The translations under genes and the position numbers were made by a program. This document shows positions 1,851 to 64,000 of a DNA stretch of 64,000 bases, in pieces. Every line of letters begins with the position of its first letter. Position 1 is the first letter of the stretch. The stretch is from a virus: the IMG/VR virus record IMGVR_UViG_3300020477_001932, positions 1 to 64,000 of that record; one strand, given 5' to 3'. The notes beneath the pieces were generated by a model. The model was given only the letters and a program-made list of their open reading frames with translations. It did no database searches and was not told where the DNA came from.

Positions 1851-2896
1851 TGTTTGGTAAATATTTTTACAATAAAAATATCAGAAATATTGTTATCTTA
1901 TTTGGAACAATATTTAATGATATAGAAATAAGAAGAACTAGAGCTGGTACGGTTCAGAGTAGGTTGAAAGTACCTATTGCGTATGGCCCCGCACAAAAGT
2001 ATTTAACAAAATTGGATCAAGGCCCTATTCAAGTTGAAGCAACAGGAATGGATGCAGTAGAAACAAGAGATACAATGGGAATGGTATTACCTAGAATGTC
2101 TTTTGAAATAATGACAATGAATTATGATCCAACAAGAAAATTACAGACAACTAAGAAAATAAGAGAAGTAAAATTTCTCGGGCCAATAGATAGTATAACA
2201 GTTACAGATAATGGTGCTGGATATAATAATATACCAACAGTTGAAATAGAAGCACCAGCTGCTGGTGGAACACAGGCTACTGCAACTGCTACTCTTGGTA
2301 CGGGTTCAGATGCTGGTAAAGTTGTAAGTATTACACTTGTTGATGTAGGTGCTGGTTATACTTTTGTTCCTAATGTTACAATAAAACCAGTTGGTAATGA
2401 TAAACCATCAGATGCAAAAGCAACAGTTAATGTTGATGCAGATACCACAACATTAAATACAGCTTATACACCAGTTCCATATAATTTTGAAATTGATCTT
2501 TCTATTATGGTTTTGAATAGTGATGATGGTTCACAAATACTTGAACAGATTTTACCATATTTTACACCAGAGTTTCAAGTAACAATGAACGAAATGAAAA
2601 CATTGGGTATTAAAAGAGATATACCTATTGTGTTTAATAGTATGTCAACAGAAGATGATTATGAAGGAGACTTTCTTACTAGAAGGTCTTTAGTTCATAC
2701 TTTATCTTTTACTGTTCAAGCATACTTATATGGCCCAACTAAAGATCAGGGTATTATCAAAGAAGTAGATGTAAATGCAACAACAGATGAAAATTTTATT
2801 GATAATGATGCTAATATTAATGTTGTTCCTAAAGACGCTACTGCTGATCCTGATGATAACCCAGGATTTACGATAACAATAGATGAGAATGTATGA
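1850..2896 (+). CDS. gp15: tail sheath stabilizer gp15 with inserted beta-rich domain
   Basis: FGTIFNDI, VPIAYGP, LPRMSFE, YDPTRK, PVPYN, QILEQILPYFTP. Confidence 0.92.
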   Translation: MFGKYFYNKNIRNIVILFGTIFNDIEIRRTRAGTVQSRLKVPIAYGPAQKYLTKLDQGPIQVEATGMDAVETRDTMGMVLPRMSFEIMTMNYDPTRKLQTTKKIREVKFLGPIDSITVTDNGAGYNNIPTVEIEAPAAGGTQATATATLGTGSDAGKVVSITLVDVGAGYTFVPNVTIKPVGNDKPSDAKATVNVDADTTTLNTAYTPVPYNFEIDLSIMVLNSDDGSQILEQILPYFTPEFQVTMNEMKTLGIKRDIPIVFNSMSTEDDYEGDFLTRRSLVHTLSFTVQAYLYGPTKDQGIIKEVDVNATTDENFIDNDANINVVPKDATADPDDNPGFTITIDENV

Positions 2897-3300
2897 AGAA
2901 AGAAACAGTAAAAAAATTAAATGATATATTAGATATTGCAGATGATATTATTGATATTGAAGAACCAGAGTTGAATCAACATATTGAAGCTGAAAAAAAA
3001 GATGATGTAGTTGATGATTATGAGTTTTCAAGAGATCAATATCACGCTTTGATTGAAAAGGGTAATACTGCATTAGAAAGTTTGTTAGATATTGCGAAAG
3101 AGGGTGAACAGCCTAGAGCATTTGAGGTTGCAACCCAACTTATAAACTCTTTAGCTGCAACTACTAAAGAGCTTTTGGTATTACAAAAAACCAAGAAAGA
3201 AGTTGAAGGAACAAATAAACCCACGAAGAATGAAAATAATCTTTTCATTGGTAGCACTTCCGAACTTCAAAAACTTCTTGAGTTAAAAAAGAAAAAATGA
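2893..3300 (+). CDS. gp16: terminase small subunit
   Basis: DDYEFSR, PRAFEV, NNLFIGSTSELQKLL; directly upstream of large subunit. Confidence 0.9.
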   Translation: MKKETVKKLNDILDIADDIIDIEEPELNQHIEAEKKDDVVDDYEFSRDQYHALIEKGNTALESLLDIAKEGEQPRAFEVATQLINSLAATTKELLVLQKTKKEVEGTNKPTKNENNLFIGSTSELQKLLELKKKK

Positions 3301-3301
3301 T

Positions 3302-4915
3302 ATGGCAGACGATACCTATTTAGGGAATAACCTTCTAAAAGGTTTAGGCGTAAAACATGATTTTACTAAAGAAGAAATTGAGGAGTATATTAAATGTGCT
3401 AATGACCCAATTTATTTTTTAGAAAGTTATGTGAAGATCGTACACGTTGACGAAGGCCTTGTGCCTTTTAAGATGTATGATTTTCAGAAAAAACTAGTTG
3501 ACGCTATAACTGAAAACAGAAATGTTATCGTAAAAACTGGTAGGCAGGTTGGTAAAACAACTACAACTATCGGTTGGTTATTACATTATATTCTTTTTAA
3601 CGAAGAAAAAATTGTTGGCATTCTAGCGAATAAAGCCATCACAGCTCGGGAAATTCTTAGTCGGGTTCAAACATCCTACCAACATCTTCCAAAGTTTTTA
3701 CAGCAAGGATTAAGAGAATGGAATAAGGGTTCTATGGAACTTGAGAATGGAAGTAAAGTTATAGCTTCTTCCACATCTTCAAGTGCAATTCGTGGATTTT
3801 CATTTTCTTGTATTCTACTTGATGAATTTGCTCACGTTCAAAGGCATATTGCAAATGAGTTTATTCGTTCAGTTTATCCTACGATTTCGTCTGGTAAAGA
3901 AACAAAAGTTATTATAGTATCTACTCCAAATGGATTTAACTTGTTTTACAAGTTTTGGAATGATGCTGAAAATGGAAATAATACATTCTATCCATTTAGA
4001 GTACATTGGTCAAATGTGCCAGGCCGTGATGAAGAATGGCATAAAAGAATTGTATCGACAATCGGTGAAGATTCTTTCAGGCAAGAGTATGAAGCTGAGT
4101 TTTTGGGGTCAACTAACACACTTGTTTCGACCGAGAAGCTCCAAGAGCTATCATATAATGACCCAATATTCTCAAAAGATGGTTTAGATGTTCACGAAGA
4201 GCCAAATCCTGAGCGTACTTATACCATAACAGTAGATGTTGCAAGGGGTCAAGGAAACGATTATTCGGCGTTTTCGGTGTTTGATATAACAGAAATTCCA
4301 TATAAAGTAGTAGCAAAGTACAGAAATAACACGGTGGCACCCCTACACTTCCCAAATATTATAAATACTATTGGAAAGAGATATAATTATGCGTATATTT
4401 TAGTAGAAATAAATGACATTGGTTCACAGGTTGCAGATGTTTTACACCATGATTTAGAGTATGAGCATTTATATTCAACATCATGGTATGGAAGGCATGG
4501 TCAACAGCTAAGTAGTGGAGCAAGAAAAGAATCAGCTTTTGGTGTTAGAACAACAAAGACAATGAAAAAGATTGGTTGTTCTAATCTGAAATCTTTGATT
4601 GAAGAAAATAAGCTCTTGTTCAATGACTACGATATTATATCAGAATTAACAACATTTATTTCTACGGGTGAGTCCTACTCAGGCGAAGAAGGAACACATG
4701 ATGATTTAGTTATAACATTGGTGTTGTTTGCATGGCTAATAGATCAACAGTATTTTAAAGATTTAAGCCAACAAAATATAAGAGATAATTTATACCAAAA
4801 CCAATTAAACCAGTTAGAAGATTTAACGACACCATTTGGAGTTATTGATAATGGTTTGAATCAAGATGAATTTGAAATTGATTCTGATGGGACAGTTTGG
4901 AAAACAGTTCTTTAA
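3302..4915 (+). CDS. gp17: terminase large subunit
   Basis: RQVGKT Walker A, LLDEFA Walker B, STPNG, DVARG and HDDLV nuclease motifs. Confidence 0.97.
   Translation: MADDTYLGNNLLKGLGVKHDFTKEEIEEYIKCANDPIYFLESYVKIVHVDEGLVPFKMYDFQKKLVDAITENRNVIVKTGRQVGKTTTTIGWLLHYILFNEEKIVGILANKAITAREILSRVQTSYQHLPKFLQQGLREWNKGSMELENGSKVIASSTSSSAIRGFSFSCILLDEFAHVQRHIANEFIRSVYPTISSGKETKVIIVSTPNGFNLFYKFWNDAENGNNTFYPFRVHWSNVPGRDEEWHKRIVSTIGEDSFRQEYEAEFLGSTNTLVSTEKLQELSYNDPIFSKDGLDVHEEPNPERTYTITVDVARGQGNDYSAFSVFDITEIPYKVVAKYRNNTVAPLHFPNIINTIGKRYNYAYILVEINDIGSQVADVLHHDLEYEHLYSTSWYGRHGQQLSSGARKESAFGVRTTKTMKKIGCSNLKSLIEENKLLFNDYDIISELTTFISTGESYSGEEGTHDDLVITLVLFAWLIDQQYFKDLSQQNIRDNLYQNQLNQLEDLTTPFGVIDNGLNQDEFEIDSDGTVWKTVL
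4360..4367 (+). promoter_or_regulatory. T4-type late promoter consensus inside gene 17
   Basis: Exact TATAAATA; intragenic, so may be chance. Confidence 0.4.
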
Positions 4916-4987
4916 AAATAGATTATTGAGCAATTGATGAAAATATATTAATATAAAAAATGTAATTAATTGTAAAGGAGATAACAA

Positions 4988-6760
4988 ATGCCATTTCAAG
5001 TAAGTCCGGGCGTAAACGTCAGCGAGATTGATTTAACTAATGTCGTGCCTAATGTATCAACTAGTATTGGTGCATATGCAGGTCAATTTCAATGGGGTCC
5101 CGTAGAACAAAGAACATTAGTAGTTTCAGAAAACGATTTAGTAGAAAGATTTTTTAAACCAGACGAAAATACATTTGAAGATTTTTGGTCTTGTGCAAAC
5201 TATCTTGCATACTCTGATAATTTGCTCGTAGTAAGAATGGTTGAAGCCGATGCACGCAACGCCGTTGTTGGTGATGTTGATGCAGGTACAGCTACTCAAG
5301 TTAAAAATGATGATGATTGGGAAAGTGATAAAGGTGCTTTTTCCGATCAATTATTCATTGCTAAATATCCCGGATCTTTAGGTAACAGCCTAAAATGTAT
5401 TGTTATTGACTCTGCTGGATGGGCCAATGCAGTAGCACAGGGAGCAGGAGCAACAGCAGATCAAAAATTATTTCTAGCCAACTTTAATGGCGCACCCGGT
5501 ACATCACAAGACGTAATCAAAGCTAATGGTGGTGCTACAACTGGTAATGACGAAATGCACGTTTTAGTAATTGACGAAGATGGTCAGTTTACTGGTGAAG
5601 CAGGTGAAATTCTTGAAGTTCACGCATACGTTAGTAAAGCAAGAGATGCTTTGAAATTTGATGGTTCAAGTAACTACATTGAGAATGTTCTACGAAACGA
5701 ATCACGTTATGTTTGGTTGGGAGCTGTAGGACAATTAACAGCATCATCAACTGATGCAGGTAGTGAAGTTGATGCTGGTGCATTAAAAGCTGGAGCAGTA
5801 TTCAAATCATTGAATAGTGCAACACCAGCAGAAATGACACCCGGTGGGTCAATGACTGGTGGAGTAGTTGGTACAAATATTTCAGCCGGTACTAGAGAAT
5901 TAGGATATAACTTTTATTCTGATCCTGAAGTTGTTGATGTAACATTAGTTATTGGTGGACCTATTTTACCTCTAAATGGTAAAAATGTTATCGACAATGT
6001 TGTTGCAGCTAGAAAAGATTGTGTTGGCTTCTTTTCACCAGCAAAAACAAGTGTTGTAGGACAGGCTGATAGAGCAGTTATCGTTAATTCTATTACAACT
6101 GATAATACAGCATTGGGTTCATCTAGTTATGCAGTTATGGATAGTGCATGGAAATATCAATATGATCGCTATCGAGATAACTTCATCTATACACCAATGA
6201 ATGCTGATATTGCTGGTCTTTGTGCAAGAACAGACTTCACAAATGATCCTTGGTTTTCACCCGCTGGTCTTAACAGAGGAACAATTAAAAATGTTGTACG
6301 ACCAAGTTGGGAATGTCGAAAAGCAGAACGTGATACTCTATATAAAATTGGAACAAATCCGGTTGTAACTCAACCAGCTGTAGGTACTGTTTTGTTTGGT
6401 GATAAAACCATGCAAGTAGTTCCAAGTGCTTTTGATCGAATCAATGTACGAAGATTGTTTATCGTTCTTGAAAAAGCAATTGCTACTGCAGCTAAAGCAT
6501 TCATGTTTGAGTTTAATGATGAGTTTACAAGAGCTCAATTTGTTAGTGTTGTTACACCTTTCTTGAGTGAAGTAGAAGGCCGAAGAGGTATTACAGACTT
6601 TAAAGTAGTTTGTGATAGCACAAATAATACTGGCCAAATTATTGATACGAATCAATTTGTTGGCGATATTTATATTAAGCCAAATCGTTCTATCAACTTC
6701 ATTCAGTTGAATTTTATTGCCGCAAGAACTGATGTAGAATTTTCAGAAATCGGTGGTTAA
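4988..6760 (+). CDS. gp18: tail sheath protein
   Basis: SPGVNVSEIDLT, QWGP, PWFSPAG, FDRINVRRLF, IYIKPNRSINFIQLNF. Confidence 0.97.
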   Translation: MPFQVSPGVNVSEIDLTNVVPNVSTSIGAYAGQFQWGPVEQRTLVVSENDLVERFFKPDENTFEDFWSCANYLAYSDNLLVVRMVEADARNAVVGDVDAGTATQVKNDDDWESDKGAFSDQLFIAKYPGSLGNSLKCIVIDSAGWANAVAQGAGATADQKLFLANFNGAPGTSQDVIKANGGATTGNDEMHVLVIDEDGQFTGEAGEILEVHAYVSKARDALKFDGSSNYIENVLRNESRYVWLGAVGQLTASSTDAGSEVDAGALKAGAVFKSLNSATPAEMTPGGSMTGGVVGTNISAGTRELGYNFYSDPEVVDVTLVIGGPILPLNGKNVIDNVVAARKDCVGFFSPAKTSVVGQADRAVIVNSITTDNTALGSSSYAVMDSAWKYQYDRYRDNFIYTPMNADIAGLCARTDFTNDPWFSPAGLNRGTIKNVVRPSWECRKAERDTLYKIGTNPVVTQPAVGTVLFGDKTMQVVPSAFDRINVRRLFIVLEKAIATAAKAFMFEFNDEFTRAQFVSVVTPFLSEVEGRRGITDFKVVCDSTNNTGQIIDTNQFVGDIYIKPNRSINFIQLNFIAARTDVEFSEIGG

Positions 6761-19936: not shown

Positions 19937-20830
19937 ATGAAACTATTATTTCTATTTGCAAAGAGATTTATTGCTGGATATGACTTTGCATCTGCAATAC
20001 CAGTTATCCAAAAACTTATGGATGATGGTTATAAAGTATCAGTTGATTATCTTGGTGAGTTGAGTGAGACCGAAGAAGATTGTGAAAGAGCTTACCAGCA
20101 ATATTTAGAAATTGTAGATTACTATAAAAATAATAAAATTGATATATCCATTAAACCATCACAATTAGGTTTAAAAATTAATAAAAATCTTTGTCAAAAG
20201 TTTATGGGTGGAATTGTTGGAAAGGCTTTTAGAAATGGTTTGACTATTCGTTTAGATATGGAAGATGATTCTTTGATAGAAGATACGATAGACTTATGTT
20301 TAAGGTTGCATAAATTTTATCCGAATACTGGATGTGCGATACAAACTAATATGTATCGAACTAAAGATGATCTAACCAAATTATTACAAAATAAAGTATC
20401 TATTAGATTAGTTAAAGGTGCATATAGAGGAAATAATAAAATAGCTTATCAGAATAAGAAACAGATTGAAAATTTGTTTTTGAAACAAAGCTTACAGATA
20501 TTATCTGATCGTTGTCGTTCTTATTATCATTTAAAAGATAAAAGAACACCCATTCATGCAATAGGTACACATGATAACAATATTATTAAACAGATTATTC
20601 ATTATAGTAAAACGATTAATATTAAGAAAGAAGATTTTGATTTTGAATTTTTATATGGAATTAGAAGGGACATTCAAACAGAGCTATTAGATTCAGGCTA
20701 TAATGTTAGGCTTTATGTGCCATTCGGCCAACAATGGCTACCTTATACGCTTAGGCGGCTTAAGGAGTTTAAGAACTTAAAATTTGTATTTTTGAATATT
20801 TTTCGTGAATTTTTTTCCAAAAGACCTTGA
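19937..20830 (+). CDS. monofunctional proline dehydrogenase
   Basis: RFIAG, DYLGE, SIKPSQLG, RLDMED, RLVKGAY, GTHD, LYGIR, YVPFG..WLPY..RRLKE. Confidence 0.92.
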   Translation: MKLLFLFAKRFIAGYDFASAIPVIQKLMDDGYKVSVDYLGELSETEEDCERAYQQYLEIVDYYKNNKIDISIKPSQLGLKINKNLCQKFMGGIVGKAFRNGLTIRLDMEDDSLIEDTIDLCLRLHKFYPNTGCAIQTNMYRTKDDLTKLLQNKVSIRLVKGAYRGNNKIAYQNKKQIENLFLKQSLQILSDRCRSYYHLKDKRTPIHAIGTHDNNIIKQIIHYSKTINIKKEDFDFEFLYGIRRDIQTELLDSGYNVRLYVPFGQQWLPYTLRRLKEFKNLKFVFLNIFREFFSKRP

Positions 20831-57525: not shown

Positions 57526-58635
57526 ATGAAAAATGAAAACATACATATTGGAATAGTTGGAGCTGGAATCATTGGCTCCACAATATATCAACTTTTGGTT
57601 AGTTGTGGAAAGAAGTACCAAGTTTCCATAGCAGATCAAAAGGAAAATAATGATCTCCTCATCAATGATGATAACTATCATAGGTTGACAATCACAAAAC
57701 CAACTTATGATGGTAAATCTACGCAGTTTACTCAATTCGTGCGTAGTAAAGATGTTATCATTAATGCACTCCCCTATCATCAAAATATCAATTTATTTAA
57801 AGCCTGTTTTGAATTGGGCGTTCCATATTTCGATTTATCAGAAGATGATGGTTTGGACAAATTCATAGAAAGTCTAAATATCTTTGACTTGTCTTTTACT
57901 ATGCCTCATTGTGGACTTGCACCTGGTTTATCTACTGTAATAGCAAATGACTTATTACGCATAACATCTAATCCGAAAAATGTTAAAATTCGTGTTGGTG
58001 CATTATCTCAAAATGCAGCTAATAAATTAAGATATTATACTTCTTGGAGTGGTGAGGGTTTAGTTAATGAGTATATTGGTGATTGTCAAGTAATGGAAGA
58101 TGGTGAATATAAAACAGTACCAGCTCTATCTGGATATGAAAAGATTACTTTAGATGGTAGAGAGTATGAGTGTTTTAATACGTCTGGTGGTTTGGGTACT
58201 TATGCTAAATCTTTAGATGATACAAACAAGTCTAATAGAATGTATAAATCATTAAGTGTAGATTATAAAACCATAAGAAGAAATGGCCATCATAATTACG
58301 TTGATTTTCTGTTTAATGATTTGCAATTATCACAACAGGAGCTAACTAGTATATTCAGAAATATTCCACAAACAAGAAAAGATGTTGTTTTACTTTATGC
58401 TTCATGTAGTAGTCCTGGCCATGATGATGAGCATACATATTTTAATATATTCAGACCAAGACAAATTAATGGTAGATGGTTGACAGCTATTCAATATACA
58501 ACAGCTATTGGTTTGGTTGCTATGGTTGAATTATTTTTAGATGGAAAATTGGGAGAAACAGGTTATCGAAAGCAAGAAGAAGTTTTATTGAGTGATGTTT
58601 ATTCTACAACATATGGGAGTTATTATAGAGATTAG
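57526..58635 (+). CDS. saccharopine/lysine 6-dehydrogenase-family oxidoreductase
   Basis: GAGIIG, NALPY, YFDLSED, CGLAPG, WSGEGLVNEY, FNTSGGLGT, YKTIR. Confidence 0.88.
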   Translation: MKNENIHIGIVGAGIIGSTIYQLLVSCGKKYQVSIADQKENNDLLINDDNYHRLTITKPTYDGKSTQFTQFVRSKDVIINALPYHQNINLFKACFELGVPYFDLSEDDGLDKFIESLNIFDLSFTMPHCGLAPGLSTVIANDLLRITSNPKNVKIRVGALSQNAANKLRYYTSWSGEGLVNEYIGDCQVMEDGEYKTVPALSGYEKITLDGREYECFNTSGGLGTYAKSLDDTNKSNRMYKSLSVDYKTIRRNGHHNYVDFLFNDLQLSQQELTSIFRNIPQTRKDVVLLYASCSSPGHDDEHTYFNIFRPRQINGRWLTAIQYTTAIGLVAMVELFLDGKLGETGYRKQEEVLLSDVYSTTYGSYYRD

Positions 58636-62607: not shown

Positions 62608-62802
62608 ATGGAAGAAGAATATGAAGATGAGATTGTAAAAAGATTTGGATGTGCTGAGTGTGGACATTCGTTTGCTATGGAATGTGAATCACCTGATATG
62701 ATTCCAAGATTTTGTCCATTTTGTGCAGCCCCTGTATATAACAGGGATGTTGATGAAGATGATGAATATGATCTTGAAGATGATTTAGGCTTTCATTTAT
62801 GA
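62608..62802 (+). CDS. small zinc-ribbon protein
   Basis: CAEC..CPFC, acidic tail, AGGAG SD. Confidence 0.7.
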   Translation: MEEEYEDEIVKRFGCAECGHSFAMECESPDMIPRFCPFCAAPVYNRDVDEDDEYDLEDDLGFHL

Positions 62803-63335
62803 CAAGCAAATCCAAAACAAAGGGTAAGAGTTGGGAACGTGATGTTTGCAACTTTCTGTCAGAGCTGTACCATGATTCATTCATAAGAGTACCTAATAGT
62901 GGAGCTTATGTTGGTGGAAAGAATGAATATAGAAAAGATACTCTTTCAGAAGAACAAATCAAGCTGGCAAGAGGCGACATAATACCGCCTACCAAATATC
63001 CATACTTTTTAGCAGAGTGTAAGAATTATGCAGACTTTCCATTTCACTTATTGTTAGCAAAAACCACAATAGCACAACTTGATAATTGGATAGAGCAAGT
63101 CGAGCATGATGTTACAAGTGATAATGATTTATGGTTATTGTTTATAAAGATAACACGAAAGGGTACATATGTTTTATTTGATAGAAATTTATATGATCCA
63201 TATGTTCATAGCAACATATCAGCAAATTTACCATATGGTGCGAAGTACAAAAATTATTGGTTTACTGAAATGAACCATTTTTTCAATTTACACAAAGACA
63301 AACTTGAAATGAGATGGAGGAGTAAGGAAGGTTAA
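62799..63335 (+). CDS. Holliday junction resolvase-like PD-(D/E)xK nuclease
   Basis: [26 protein letters not shown]. Confidence 0.8.
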
Positions 63336-63361
63336 TTATTAATAACAATGAAAGGAGTATT

Positions 63362-64000
63362 ATGAAAAAGATTGTATTATTTTTATTAATGTTTATATTA
63401 CCAACTGGTGTATTTGCAGAGGATAAAATCAAAATAGGTGTTTTACATTCACTATCTGGAACAATGGCTATTAGTGAAACATCATTGAAAGATGTTGCAT
63501 TGATGGCAATAGAAGAAATCAATGAAAGTGGTGGATTACTTGGAAAACAATTAGAGCCAGTTGTAGTTGACCCTGCCTCAGATTGGCCGTTGTTTGCAGA
63601 GAAGGCAAGAGAGTTAATCCAGAAACATAAAGTTGCAGTAACATTTGGTTGTTGGACTTCTGTTTCAAGAAAATCCGTTCTTCCAGTATTTGAAGAACAC
63701 AATGGATTATTGTTCTATCCAGTACAATACGAAGGTGAGGAAAGTTCTTACAATGTATTCTATACTGGTGCAGCTCCAAATCAACAAGCAATTCCTGCTG
63801 TTGAATATTTAATGAGTGAAGATGGTGGTGGTGCAAAACGATTTGTTTTGTTGGGTACAGATTATGTATATCCAAGAACCACTAATAAAATACTCAATTA
63901 CTTCTTAAGGTCAAAGGGTGTTAATGCAAAAGATGTTTTAGAAGTATATACACCGTTTGGTCATAGTGATTATCAAACTATTGTTGCAGAAATTAAAAAG
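63362..64000 (+). CDS. urtA: urea ABC transporter substrate-binding protein UrtA (3' truncated by window)
   Basis: Manual translation: signal peptide, [83 protein letters not shown]; AAGGAG SD. Confidence 0.93.

Follow-up and report, generated by a model that had tools for sequence, protein, structure and literature searches.

A urtA gene for a predicted urea-binding protein in an uncultured T4-like marine phage lineage

Among T4-like marine phages, cyanophages encode PstS, the periplasmic phosphate-binding part of a high-affinity ABC importer, without its other subunits; pstS is a flexible, host-derived gene in these phages, and experimental work exists for the protein. As far as we could find, phage nutrient-uptake genes are established for phosphate, through PstS, and not for urea. 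In cells, the UrtA proteins of solved structure, from Prochlorococcus marinus MIT9313 (8HIC) and in 7S6E, 7S6F and 8TG1, work with their own UrtBCDE, and urtA of Nitrospinaceae heads an urtABCDE operon near urease and porin genes. In Prochlorococcus UrtA, mutating Trp120, Ser122, Tyr141, Gln144, Glu146, Tyr190, Asn246 or Ser274 reduces or abolishes urea binding, and mutating Phe192 has little effect (PMC10392092).

Here we describe a urtA gene that, unlike these cellular genes, stands alone among phage genes. Like cyanophage PstS, its product would be a lone binding subunit for a limiting nutrient in a T4-like marine phage. It differs from PstS in protein family, in nutrient (nitrogen as urea rather than phosphate) and in the host group concerned, and urea imported via UrtA, unlike phosphate imported via PstS, still needs a host urease.

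The window analysed is a stretch of 64,000 nucleotides, positions 1-64,000 of a 74,256-bp virus record; L002 denotes positions 60,000-74,256 of the same record. The urtA frame opens with ATG and runs off the window end after 213 amino acids, and in the record it is complete, at 423 amino acids. The GGAG of its ribosome-binding site (63354-63357) lies 4 nt upstream of the ATG, which follows the stop of the preceding gene by 26 nt. Within the window, the 213 residues hit Pfam Peripla_BP_5 at E 7e-92 and TIGR03407, the UrtA model, at E 9e-100. At full length the protein spans all of TIGR03407 (profile positions 1-361 of 361) with 582.9 bits, where the curated cut-off is 492.75, and matches Peripla_BP_5 with E 2e-168. 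A first-pass annotation of this DNA had described a frame leaving the window with a Shine–Dalgarno sequence, a signal peptide and UrtA motifs, and the frame, the GGAG and the TIGR03407 match were all found. It had also placed the gene 26 nt after a resolvase on the same strand; spacing and strand hold, but the neighbour matches a PDDEXK endonuclease. Sigma-70-like sites were no commoner in a promoter scan than in shuffled sequence, and no promoter is claimed. Judged by family, the predicted product is an ordinary UrtA; what is new is its location in a phage. Coordinates are collected in Table 1.

Table 1. Positions of urtA, its neighbours and related genes; plain numbers refer to the window or record, and prefixed ones to the contig named.
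Feature	Position	Strand	Basis or remark
Ribosome-binding site AAAGGAG	63351-63357	+	read from sequence
urtA, first 213 of 423 codons	63362-64000	+	TIGR03407, Peripla_BP_5
urtA, complete in record	63362-64633 (L002:3363-4634)	+	
Putative Sec-type signal peptide, 19 aa, MKK...VFA	63362-63418	+	by-eye reading, comparison of N-termini
Six of eight urea-pocket residues (W98, S100, Y119, Q122, E124, Y168)	63653-63865	+	8HIC alignment
PDDEXK_15 endonuclease, left border of variable cargo slot	62799-63335	+	PF24608, E 1.3e-23
Type I GAPDH, GTG start, 345 aa	L002:4638-5675 (record 64637-65674)	+	3 nt after urtA stop
Strong terminator-like hairpin	L002:5730-5764		3' of GAPDH
ProDH	19937-20830		second variable cargo slot
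Saccharopine-dehydrogenase-like gene	57526-58635		PF03435, PF16653
urtA of L003	L003:10001-11287		second variable cargo slot
2OG-Fe(II) oxygenase	L179:4241-4861		alone in PDDEXK-GAPDH slot
2OG-Fe(II) oxygenase	L005:9989-10624		with urtA in PDDEXK-GAPDH slot
Cellular UrtA with lipobox-like N-terminus	L103:7845-9239		...GVGC, long linker
Cellular UrtB with N-terminal extension	L103:9405-11090		HEAT repeats, about 250 aa
IS-type integrase (rve)	L103:13805-14863		directly 3' of urtE
urtA of L007 and L008	L007:6890-8158, L008:9021-10289		gp47-gp46-PDDEXK-NrdA-NrdB-urtA
urtA beside large terminase and protease-capsid fusion	L009:10055-11203 and L011		
urtA, T4-type terminase nearby	L012:1-903		
urtA of L006	L006:3149-4414		UrtA clusters with Burkholderiaceae sequence

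The rest of the record is of phage type. Upstream of urtA it encodes a head-closure protein, large terminase, tail sheath, portal and helicases, together with a gp46-like SbcC, a gp41-like helicase and a gp43 polymerase; the isolated phages closest to it in this polymerase are T4-like cyanophages, which reach only about 50% identity. Genes for RNR, ThyX and dCMP deaminase are present as well. Past the hairpin that follows GAPDH, and on the same strand, come an M23 peptidase, the dCMP deaminase, a T4-type RNase H, DUF6433, a DegP-like protease, a PD-(D/E)XK nuclease and an IscA-like protein. The downstream sequence, which had been singled out for inspection, thus holds GAPDH and T4-type phage genes and not host chromosome. 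No urtBCDE permease, ABC ATPase or urease gene adjoins urtA in the record, which extends 10 kb past the window; with UrtBCDE absent from the phage, function would depend on a compatible host transporter. GC content along the L002 region shows no step and stays near 0.33 throughout (range 0.27-0.38, mostly 0.29-0.37). By gene content the record is part of the genome of an uncultured T4-like marine myovirus of lytic type. CheckV estimates its completeness at 41%, and IMG/VR labels it a provirus. Its last position coincides with the stop of a gene, and a contig of 157,706 bp is known to carry an identical ProDH; the label therefore probably reflects a software cut from a longer phage contig. Elsewhere in the window, the gene earlier called a lysine-type dehydrogenase matches both saccharopine dehydrogenase domains and has conserved counterparts, 51-61% identical, in L005 and L099 of the related phages.

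A search of 5.8 billion proteins with the phage UrtA returned matches at 86-94% identity. Those with names all came from metagenome-assembled genomes (MAGs) labelled Nitrospina, Nitrospinaceae or Nitrospinota, except for one labelled "Desulfobacula" that is identical to a Nitrospinae sequence. The metagenome contigs that carry the gene divide cleanly into two classes. In the phage class, UrtA has 423-429 aa, contig GC is 0.31-0.36 and phage genes lie on both sides; in the cellular class, UrtA has 437-466 aa, contig GC is 0.39-0.47 and urtBCDE follows. The cellular contig L103, for instance, reads ureD ... ureC ... ureF-ureG-porin-urtA-urtB-urtC-urtD-urtE. Exact look-ups of cellular neighbours (UreC, UrtC and the upstream protein) led to Nitrospina or Nitrospinaceae labels, and one neighbouring cellular protein was also labelled "Muricauda" and "Neomarinimicrobiota". 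On L103, UrtB carries a HEAT-repeat extension and an integrase follows urtE (Table 1).

Phage and cellular Nitrospinaceae UrtA are 86-91% identical over the mature protein, and the Nitrospinaceae proteins (for example MBT5986553.1 and MDP7556382.1) have identical pocket residues and the same mature length as the phage copy. The phage protein is 75-83% identical even to Pseudomonas and Polyangiaceae proteins among the matches listed. UrtA thus evolves slowly, which gives short tree branches and moderate support. The phylogeny called for in the first-pass annotation was run on 44 rows with IQ-TREE. Phage-type UrtA formed one clade (SH-aLRT 95), nested within a Nitrospinaceae-labelled clade of 33 rows (support 91), and FastTree agreed; only six phage-clade rows are verified as phage by context, the rest being assigned by tree placement and short signal peptide. 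Two cellular clades, L100/P0073 (Nitrospina sp.) and P0090/P0122 (Nitrospinaceae), group with the phage clade at support 89, without resolution among the three. A search of genome contigs gave no Nitrospinota genome among the matches listed.

The N-termini differ between the two classes. Judged by eye, the phage protein has a positive start, a hydrophobic core and VFA before Glu20, where cleavage is predicted. Phage copies share a putative signal peptide of 19-25 aa of the MKK...FLLMF...VFA type (19 aa in the window). Cellular Nitrospinaceae-type UrtA instead has either a peptide of some 33 aa with AQA at its end or an N-terminus of lipobox form. On this comparison the phage signal peptide is shorter than the host type and unrelated to it, and appears to have been replaced. 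Some of the Nitrospinaceae-type cellular proteins (462-466 aa), those with the lipobox-like N-terminus and a long linker, may be lipid-anchored rather than free in the periplasm.

Composition and substitution patterns separate the classes as well. GC3 of urtA is 0.19-0.23 in phage copies (0.2 in the phage described here) against 0.33-0.52 in cellular ones. Between phage and cellular urtA, synonymous sites are saturated and dN stays as low as 0.04-0.09; comparisons within the phage class give dS of 0.43-0.78 and dN/dS of 0.06-0.10. By these measures the phage gene is under strong purifying selection and adapted to phage composition. Saturated synonymous sites, phage-like GC3 and low dN/dS together indicate that the capture is old and that the gene was kept functional while the lineage diversified.

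Taken together, the best explanation overall is, in our view, that urtA is a phage auxiliary metabolic gene, derived from Nitrospinaceae, that raises urea uptake; we put the probability of this reading at about 0.6. The urtA sequences point, with moderate confidence, to Nitrospinaceae as hosts of the phage lineage, an assignment that rests on this one gene. The 120 best matches of GAPDH (at least 83% identity), probably all of them phage copies, carried no taxon names and gave no host signal. For ProDH the one named match was an Acidimicrobiaceae MAG at 59% identity, which does not support Nitrospinaceae, and a search on the phylum of the best genome-contig match, with 4 of 61 matches and no taxon names, did not help to assign a host.

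The alternative that survives best accepts a true phage urtA but places the phage in a host outside Nitrospinaceae: another urea-using marine bacterium with indirect acquisition of the gene, unless the MAG labels themselves are wrong. The silence of ProDH and GAPDH fits it, since a single gene points to Nitrospinaceae, and so do the "Muricauda" and "Neomarinimicrobiota" labels, which are binning noise, and the cyanophage affinity of gp43. The GC content of the phage, 0.33 against 0.39-0.47 in the cellular contigs, has also been counted for it, but T4-like phages are commonly more AT-rich than their hosts. Against it, at least ten separate NCBI MAG proteins from different accession series, comprising UrtA, UreC, UrtC and a neighbour gene, are labelled Nitrospina, Nitrospinaceae or Nitrospinota, and the phage clade is nested inside sequences so labelled. 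Moreover, a substrate-binding protein must fit the permease of its host, which favours host-derived copies. We regard a host outside Nitrospinaceae as unlikely, though it keeps appreciable weight, and retain Nitrospinaceae as the probable host.

Within the phage lineage urtA behaves as flexible cargo. The PDDEXK gene adjoins RNR in all relatives, with or without urtA. Among 34 informative IMG/VR relatives, fetched via RNR and with the PDDEXK gene present, urtA separates PDDEXK from GAPDH in only two, L004 and L188 (L188 and L005 being one contig). In most the PDDEXK gene is followed directly by GAPDH, which is thus usually kept even where urtA is absent; five lack GAPDH as well. A 2OG-Fe(II) oxygenase occupies the slot by itself in L179 and together with urtA in L005. 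In L003, of the same lineage, urtA follows a gp46 homologue and lies between a PsiE-family gene and Hsp20. This second variable cargo slot is the one that holds ProDH in the window, so that ProDH and UrtA alternate in one slot among related phages. The lack of urtA from the PDDEXK-GAPDH site of most relatives indicates that the gene is dispensable, and the monophyly of the phage copies implies either transfer of the gene among phages and slots or repeated loss.

A mechanism can be proposed from these observations. The gene would have been captured once from a marine Nitrospinaceae-like bacterium, the probable host, and kept since by strong purifying selection while moving as cargo between the slots of related phages. 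During infection, phage UrtA would leave the cytoplasm via the host Sec machinery, directed by a short signal peptide of its own, capture periplasmic urea and hand it to host UrtBCDE. Urea uptake would then rise, and host urease would free ammonium for heavy phage nucleotide synthesis. We consider it fairly likely that the protein serves uptake through host UrtBCDE; the near-identity of its mature part to host UrtA fits a retained docking surface for UrtBC, and in terms of mechanism the parallel drawn with phage pstS is reasonable. A wider programme of organic-nitrogen scavenging that would include ProDH and the saccharopine-dehydrogenase-like gene, as the first-pass annotation had suggested, is speculation.

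Metatranscriptome contigs fit a joint transcript of urtA and GAPDH that would end at the terminator. In two such runs of one study, contigs without mismatch lie inside urtA (X10, 3791-3986; X20, 3667-3823), and a further X10 contig (4395-4759) spans the urtA/GAPDH junction, again with no mismatch, although carried-over DNA is possible in each case. High-depth RNA contigs with mismatches (records 10, 14 and 18) probably represent cellular urtA and were not counted as phage expression.

An exported urea binder might instead not serve uptake at all, but compete with or block host UrtA at the permease, act as a sensor or exclude other phages. Nothing direct speaks for such a role, though an orphan binding protein without its own permease, dispensable in most relatives, would fit it. 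Purifying selection over the whole of UrtA and the high identity of its mature part to the host protein are what would be expected if both binding and UrtBC docking were retained, and the precedent of cyanophage PstS points to uptake as well. We therefore hold a role other than uptake to be improbable, and keep to import through the host transporter.

The ligand of the protein is very probably urea. The best solved homologues of phage UrtA are 8TG1 (E 4e-131) and 8HIC, 7S6F and 7S6E (E about 1e-99), all of the same family; identity, read from the alignments, is about 65% to 8TG1 and about 50% to 8HIC. Pocket residues were mapped by HMMER alignment to 8HIC, with a constant numbering offset checked along its length. 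All eight residues important for urea binding are kept, the six listed in Table 1 as well as N227 and S254, which lie just past the window end. This is the W, S, Y, Q, E, Y, N, S pocket of the four solved proteins, and its eight positions are invariant in an alignment of 196 phage and cellular UrtA relatives. Conserved pocket residues, and the place of the closest cellular homologues in canonical urease-urtABCDE clusters, make urea by far the most likely ligand.

The first-pass annotation had named a ligand other than urea as grounds for giving up its interpretation, and related proteins give this some substance. Peripla_BP_5 includes binders of other small amides, among them AmiC and FmdD, so that formamide, acetamide or a similar compound could be bound; AmiC (1PEA) is a detectable homologue of the phage protein (E 1.5e-47), and the equivalent of Phe192, a pocket-lining position, is Tyr (Y170) in phage UrtA. 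But the substituted position is the one of little mutational effect, and it is Tyr in 195 of the 196 aligned sequences, including those from urease-urtABCDE clusters. The AmiC match, at 166 bits, is much weaker than the 338-441 bits of the solved UrtAs, and AmiC, which has no signal peptide, acts in the cytoplasm to regulate the expression of amidase. With the full-length protein above the UrtA-specific cut-off and all eight urea residues in place, an amide other than urea is very improbable, and urea stands as the predicted ligand.

The first-pass impression that urtA is a true phage gene was borne out by phage genes on both flanks, uniform GC, phage-like GC3 and recurrence. The order RNR-PDDEXK-urtA-GAPDH was found in seven other assemblies: L004, L005 and L010 are IMG/VR contigs from other metagenomes, and L098, L099, L108 and L133 are metagenome contigs. 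Their flanking proteins share only 47-87% identity with the window's own, which marks them as different phages rather than one assembly met again. Together with L003, where the gene is at its other site, they make eight further context-verified phage copies from different metagenomes. Over 80% of the sampled words of L002:2700-5700 were present in nine marine DNA runs from three studies; runs X11-X19, with a small share of the query words, were left out of the habitat evidence. In runs of two of the three studies, with one run possibly being the source sample of the record, contigs with zero mismatches bridge both urtA junctions, that with the PDDEXK gene in X1 record 2 (2898-3665) and X7 record 20 (2700-3886), and that with GAPDH in X1 record 3 (3638-5276) and X7 record 24 (4074-4872).

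Recurrent gene order and bridging contigs thus dispose of the misassembly that had been raised as a concern, and of a host flank: urtA here is a genuine phage gene, practically beyond doubt. That it is host DNA, brought in by the flank of an integrated prophage or by a chimeric assembly of phage and bacterium, would suit the provirus class, the 41% completeness and the close match to cellular Nitrospinaceae UrtA, but is scarcely credible for a gene with phage GC3 rather than cellular, set among phage genes for tens of kb on one strand at uniform GC, in an arrangement common to eight assemblies with the record and bridged at both junctions, with no urtBCDE or urease downstream and with a label suggestive of a software cut.

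Viral urtA is not confined to this lineage. Divergent copies (61-72% identity) occur in six other viral contigs (L006, L007, L008, L009, L011 and L012; Table 1), among which are a second T4-like lineage and a phage whose capsid is of HK97 type. UrtA of L007, L008 and L009 clusters with alphaproteobacterial sequences. Neighbours of urtA in L006 match PHROG families (HNH endonuclease and nucleotide-sugar epimerase), and no hallmark phage gene was found on that contig. The differing origins of these copies suggest that viruses have acquired urtA at least three times. Among 50,697 GenBank phage records there was no close UrtA homologue, the best match being 23% identical, and a literature search for phage or viral urtA returned nothing relevant, though large supplementary gene tables could still list such genes.

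To our knowledge, no isolated phage is known for Nitrospinaceae. Urea and cyanate cover more than half of the nitrogen that Nitrospinae need (PMC7005884). These bacteria grow fast and yet stay low in abundance, which has been put down to high mortality, possibly through viral lysis (PMC7005884; PMC8026999). Against this background we offer tentatively, at somewhat less than even odds, the broader view that T4-like phages of this lineage are widespread and infect marine Nitrospinaceae, that viruses manipulate how urea is acquired and that urtA is a recurrent nitrogen-uptake gene, gained independently in several marine phage groups. If so, viruses would alter urea acquisition by the ocean's main nitrite oxidisers, and there would be a genomic handle on the high viral mortality proposed for Nitrospinae. 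A common phage lineage with a Nitrospinaceae-derived urtA would be a concrete candidate virus for this group. Since phage and host urtA differ in codon usage and signal peptide, metatranscriptomes and metaproteomes could separate the two; the phage gene would also be a marker for tracking infected cells, and on it the idea that viruses reprogramme nitrogen acquisition could be tested within the nitrogen cycle of the dark ocean.
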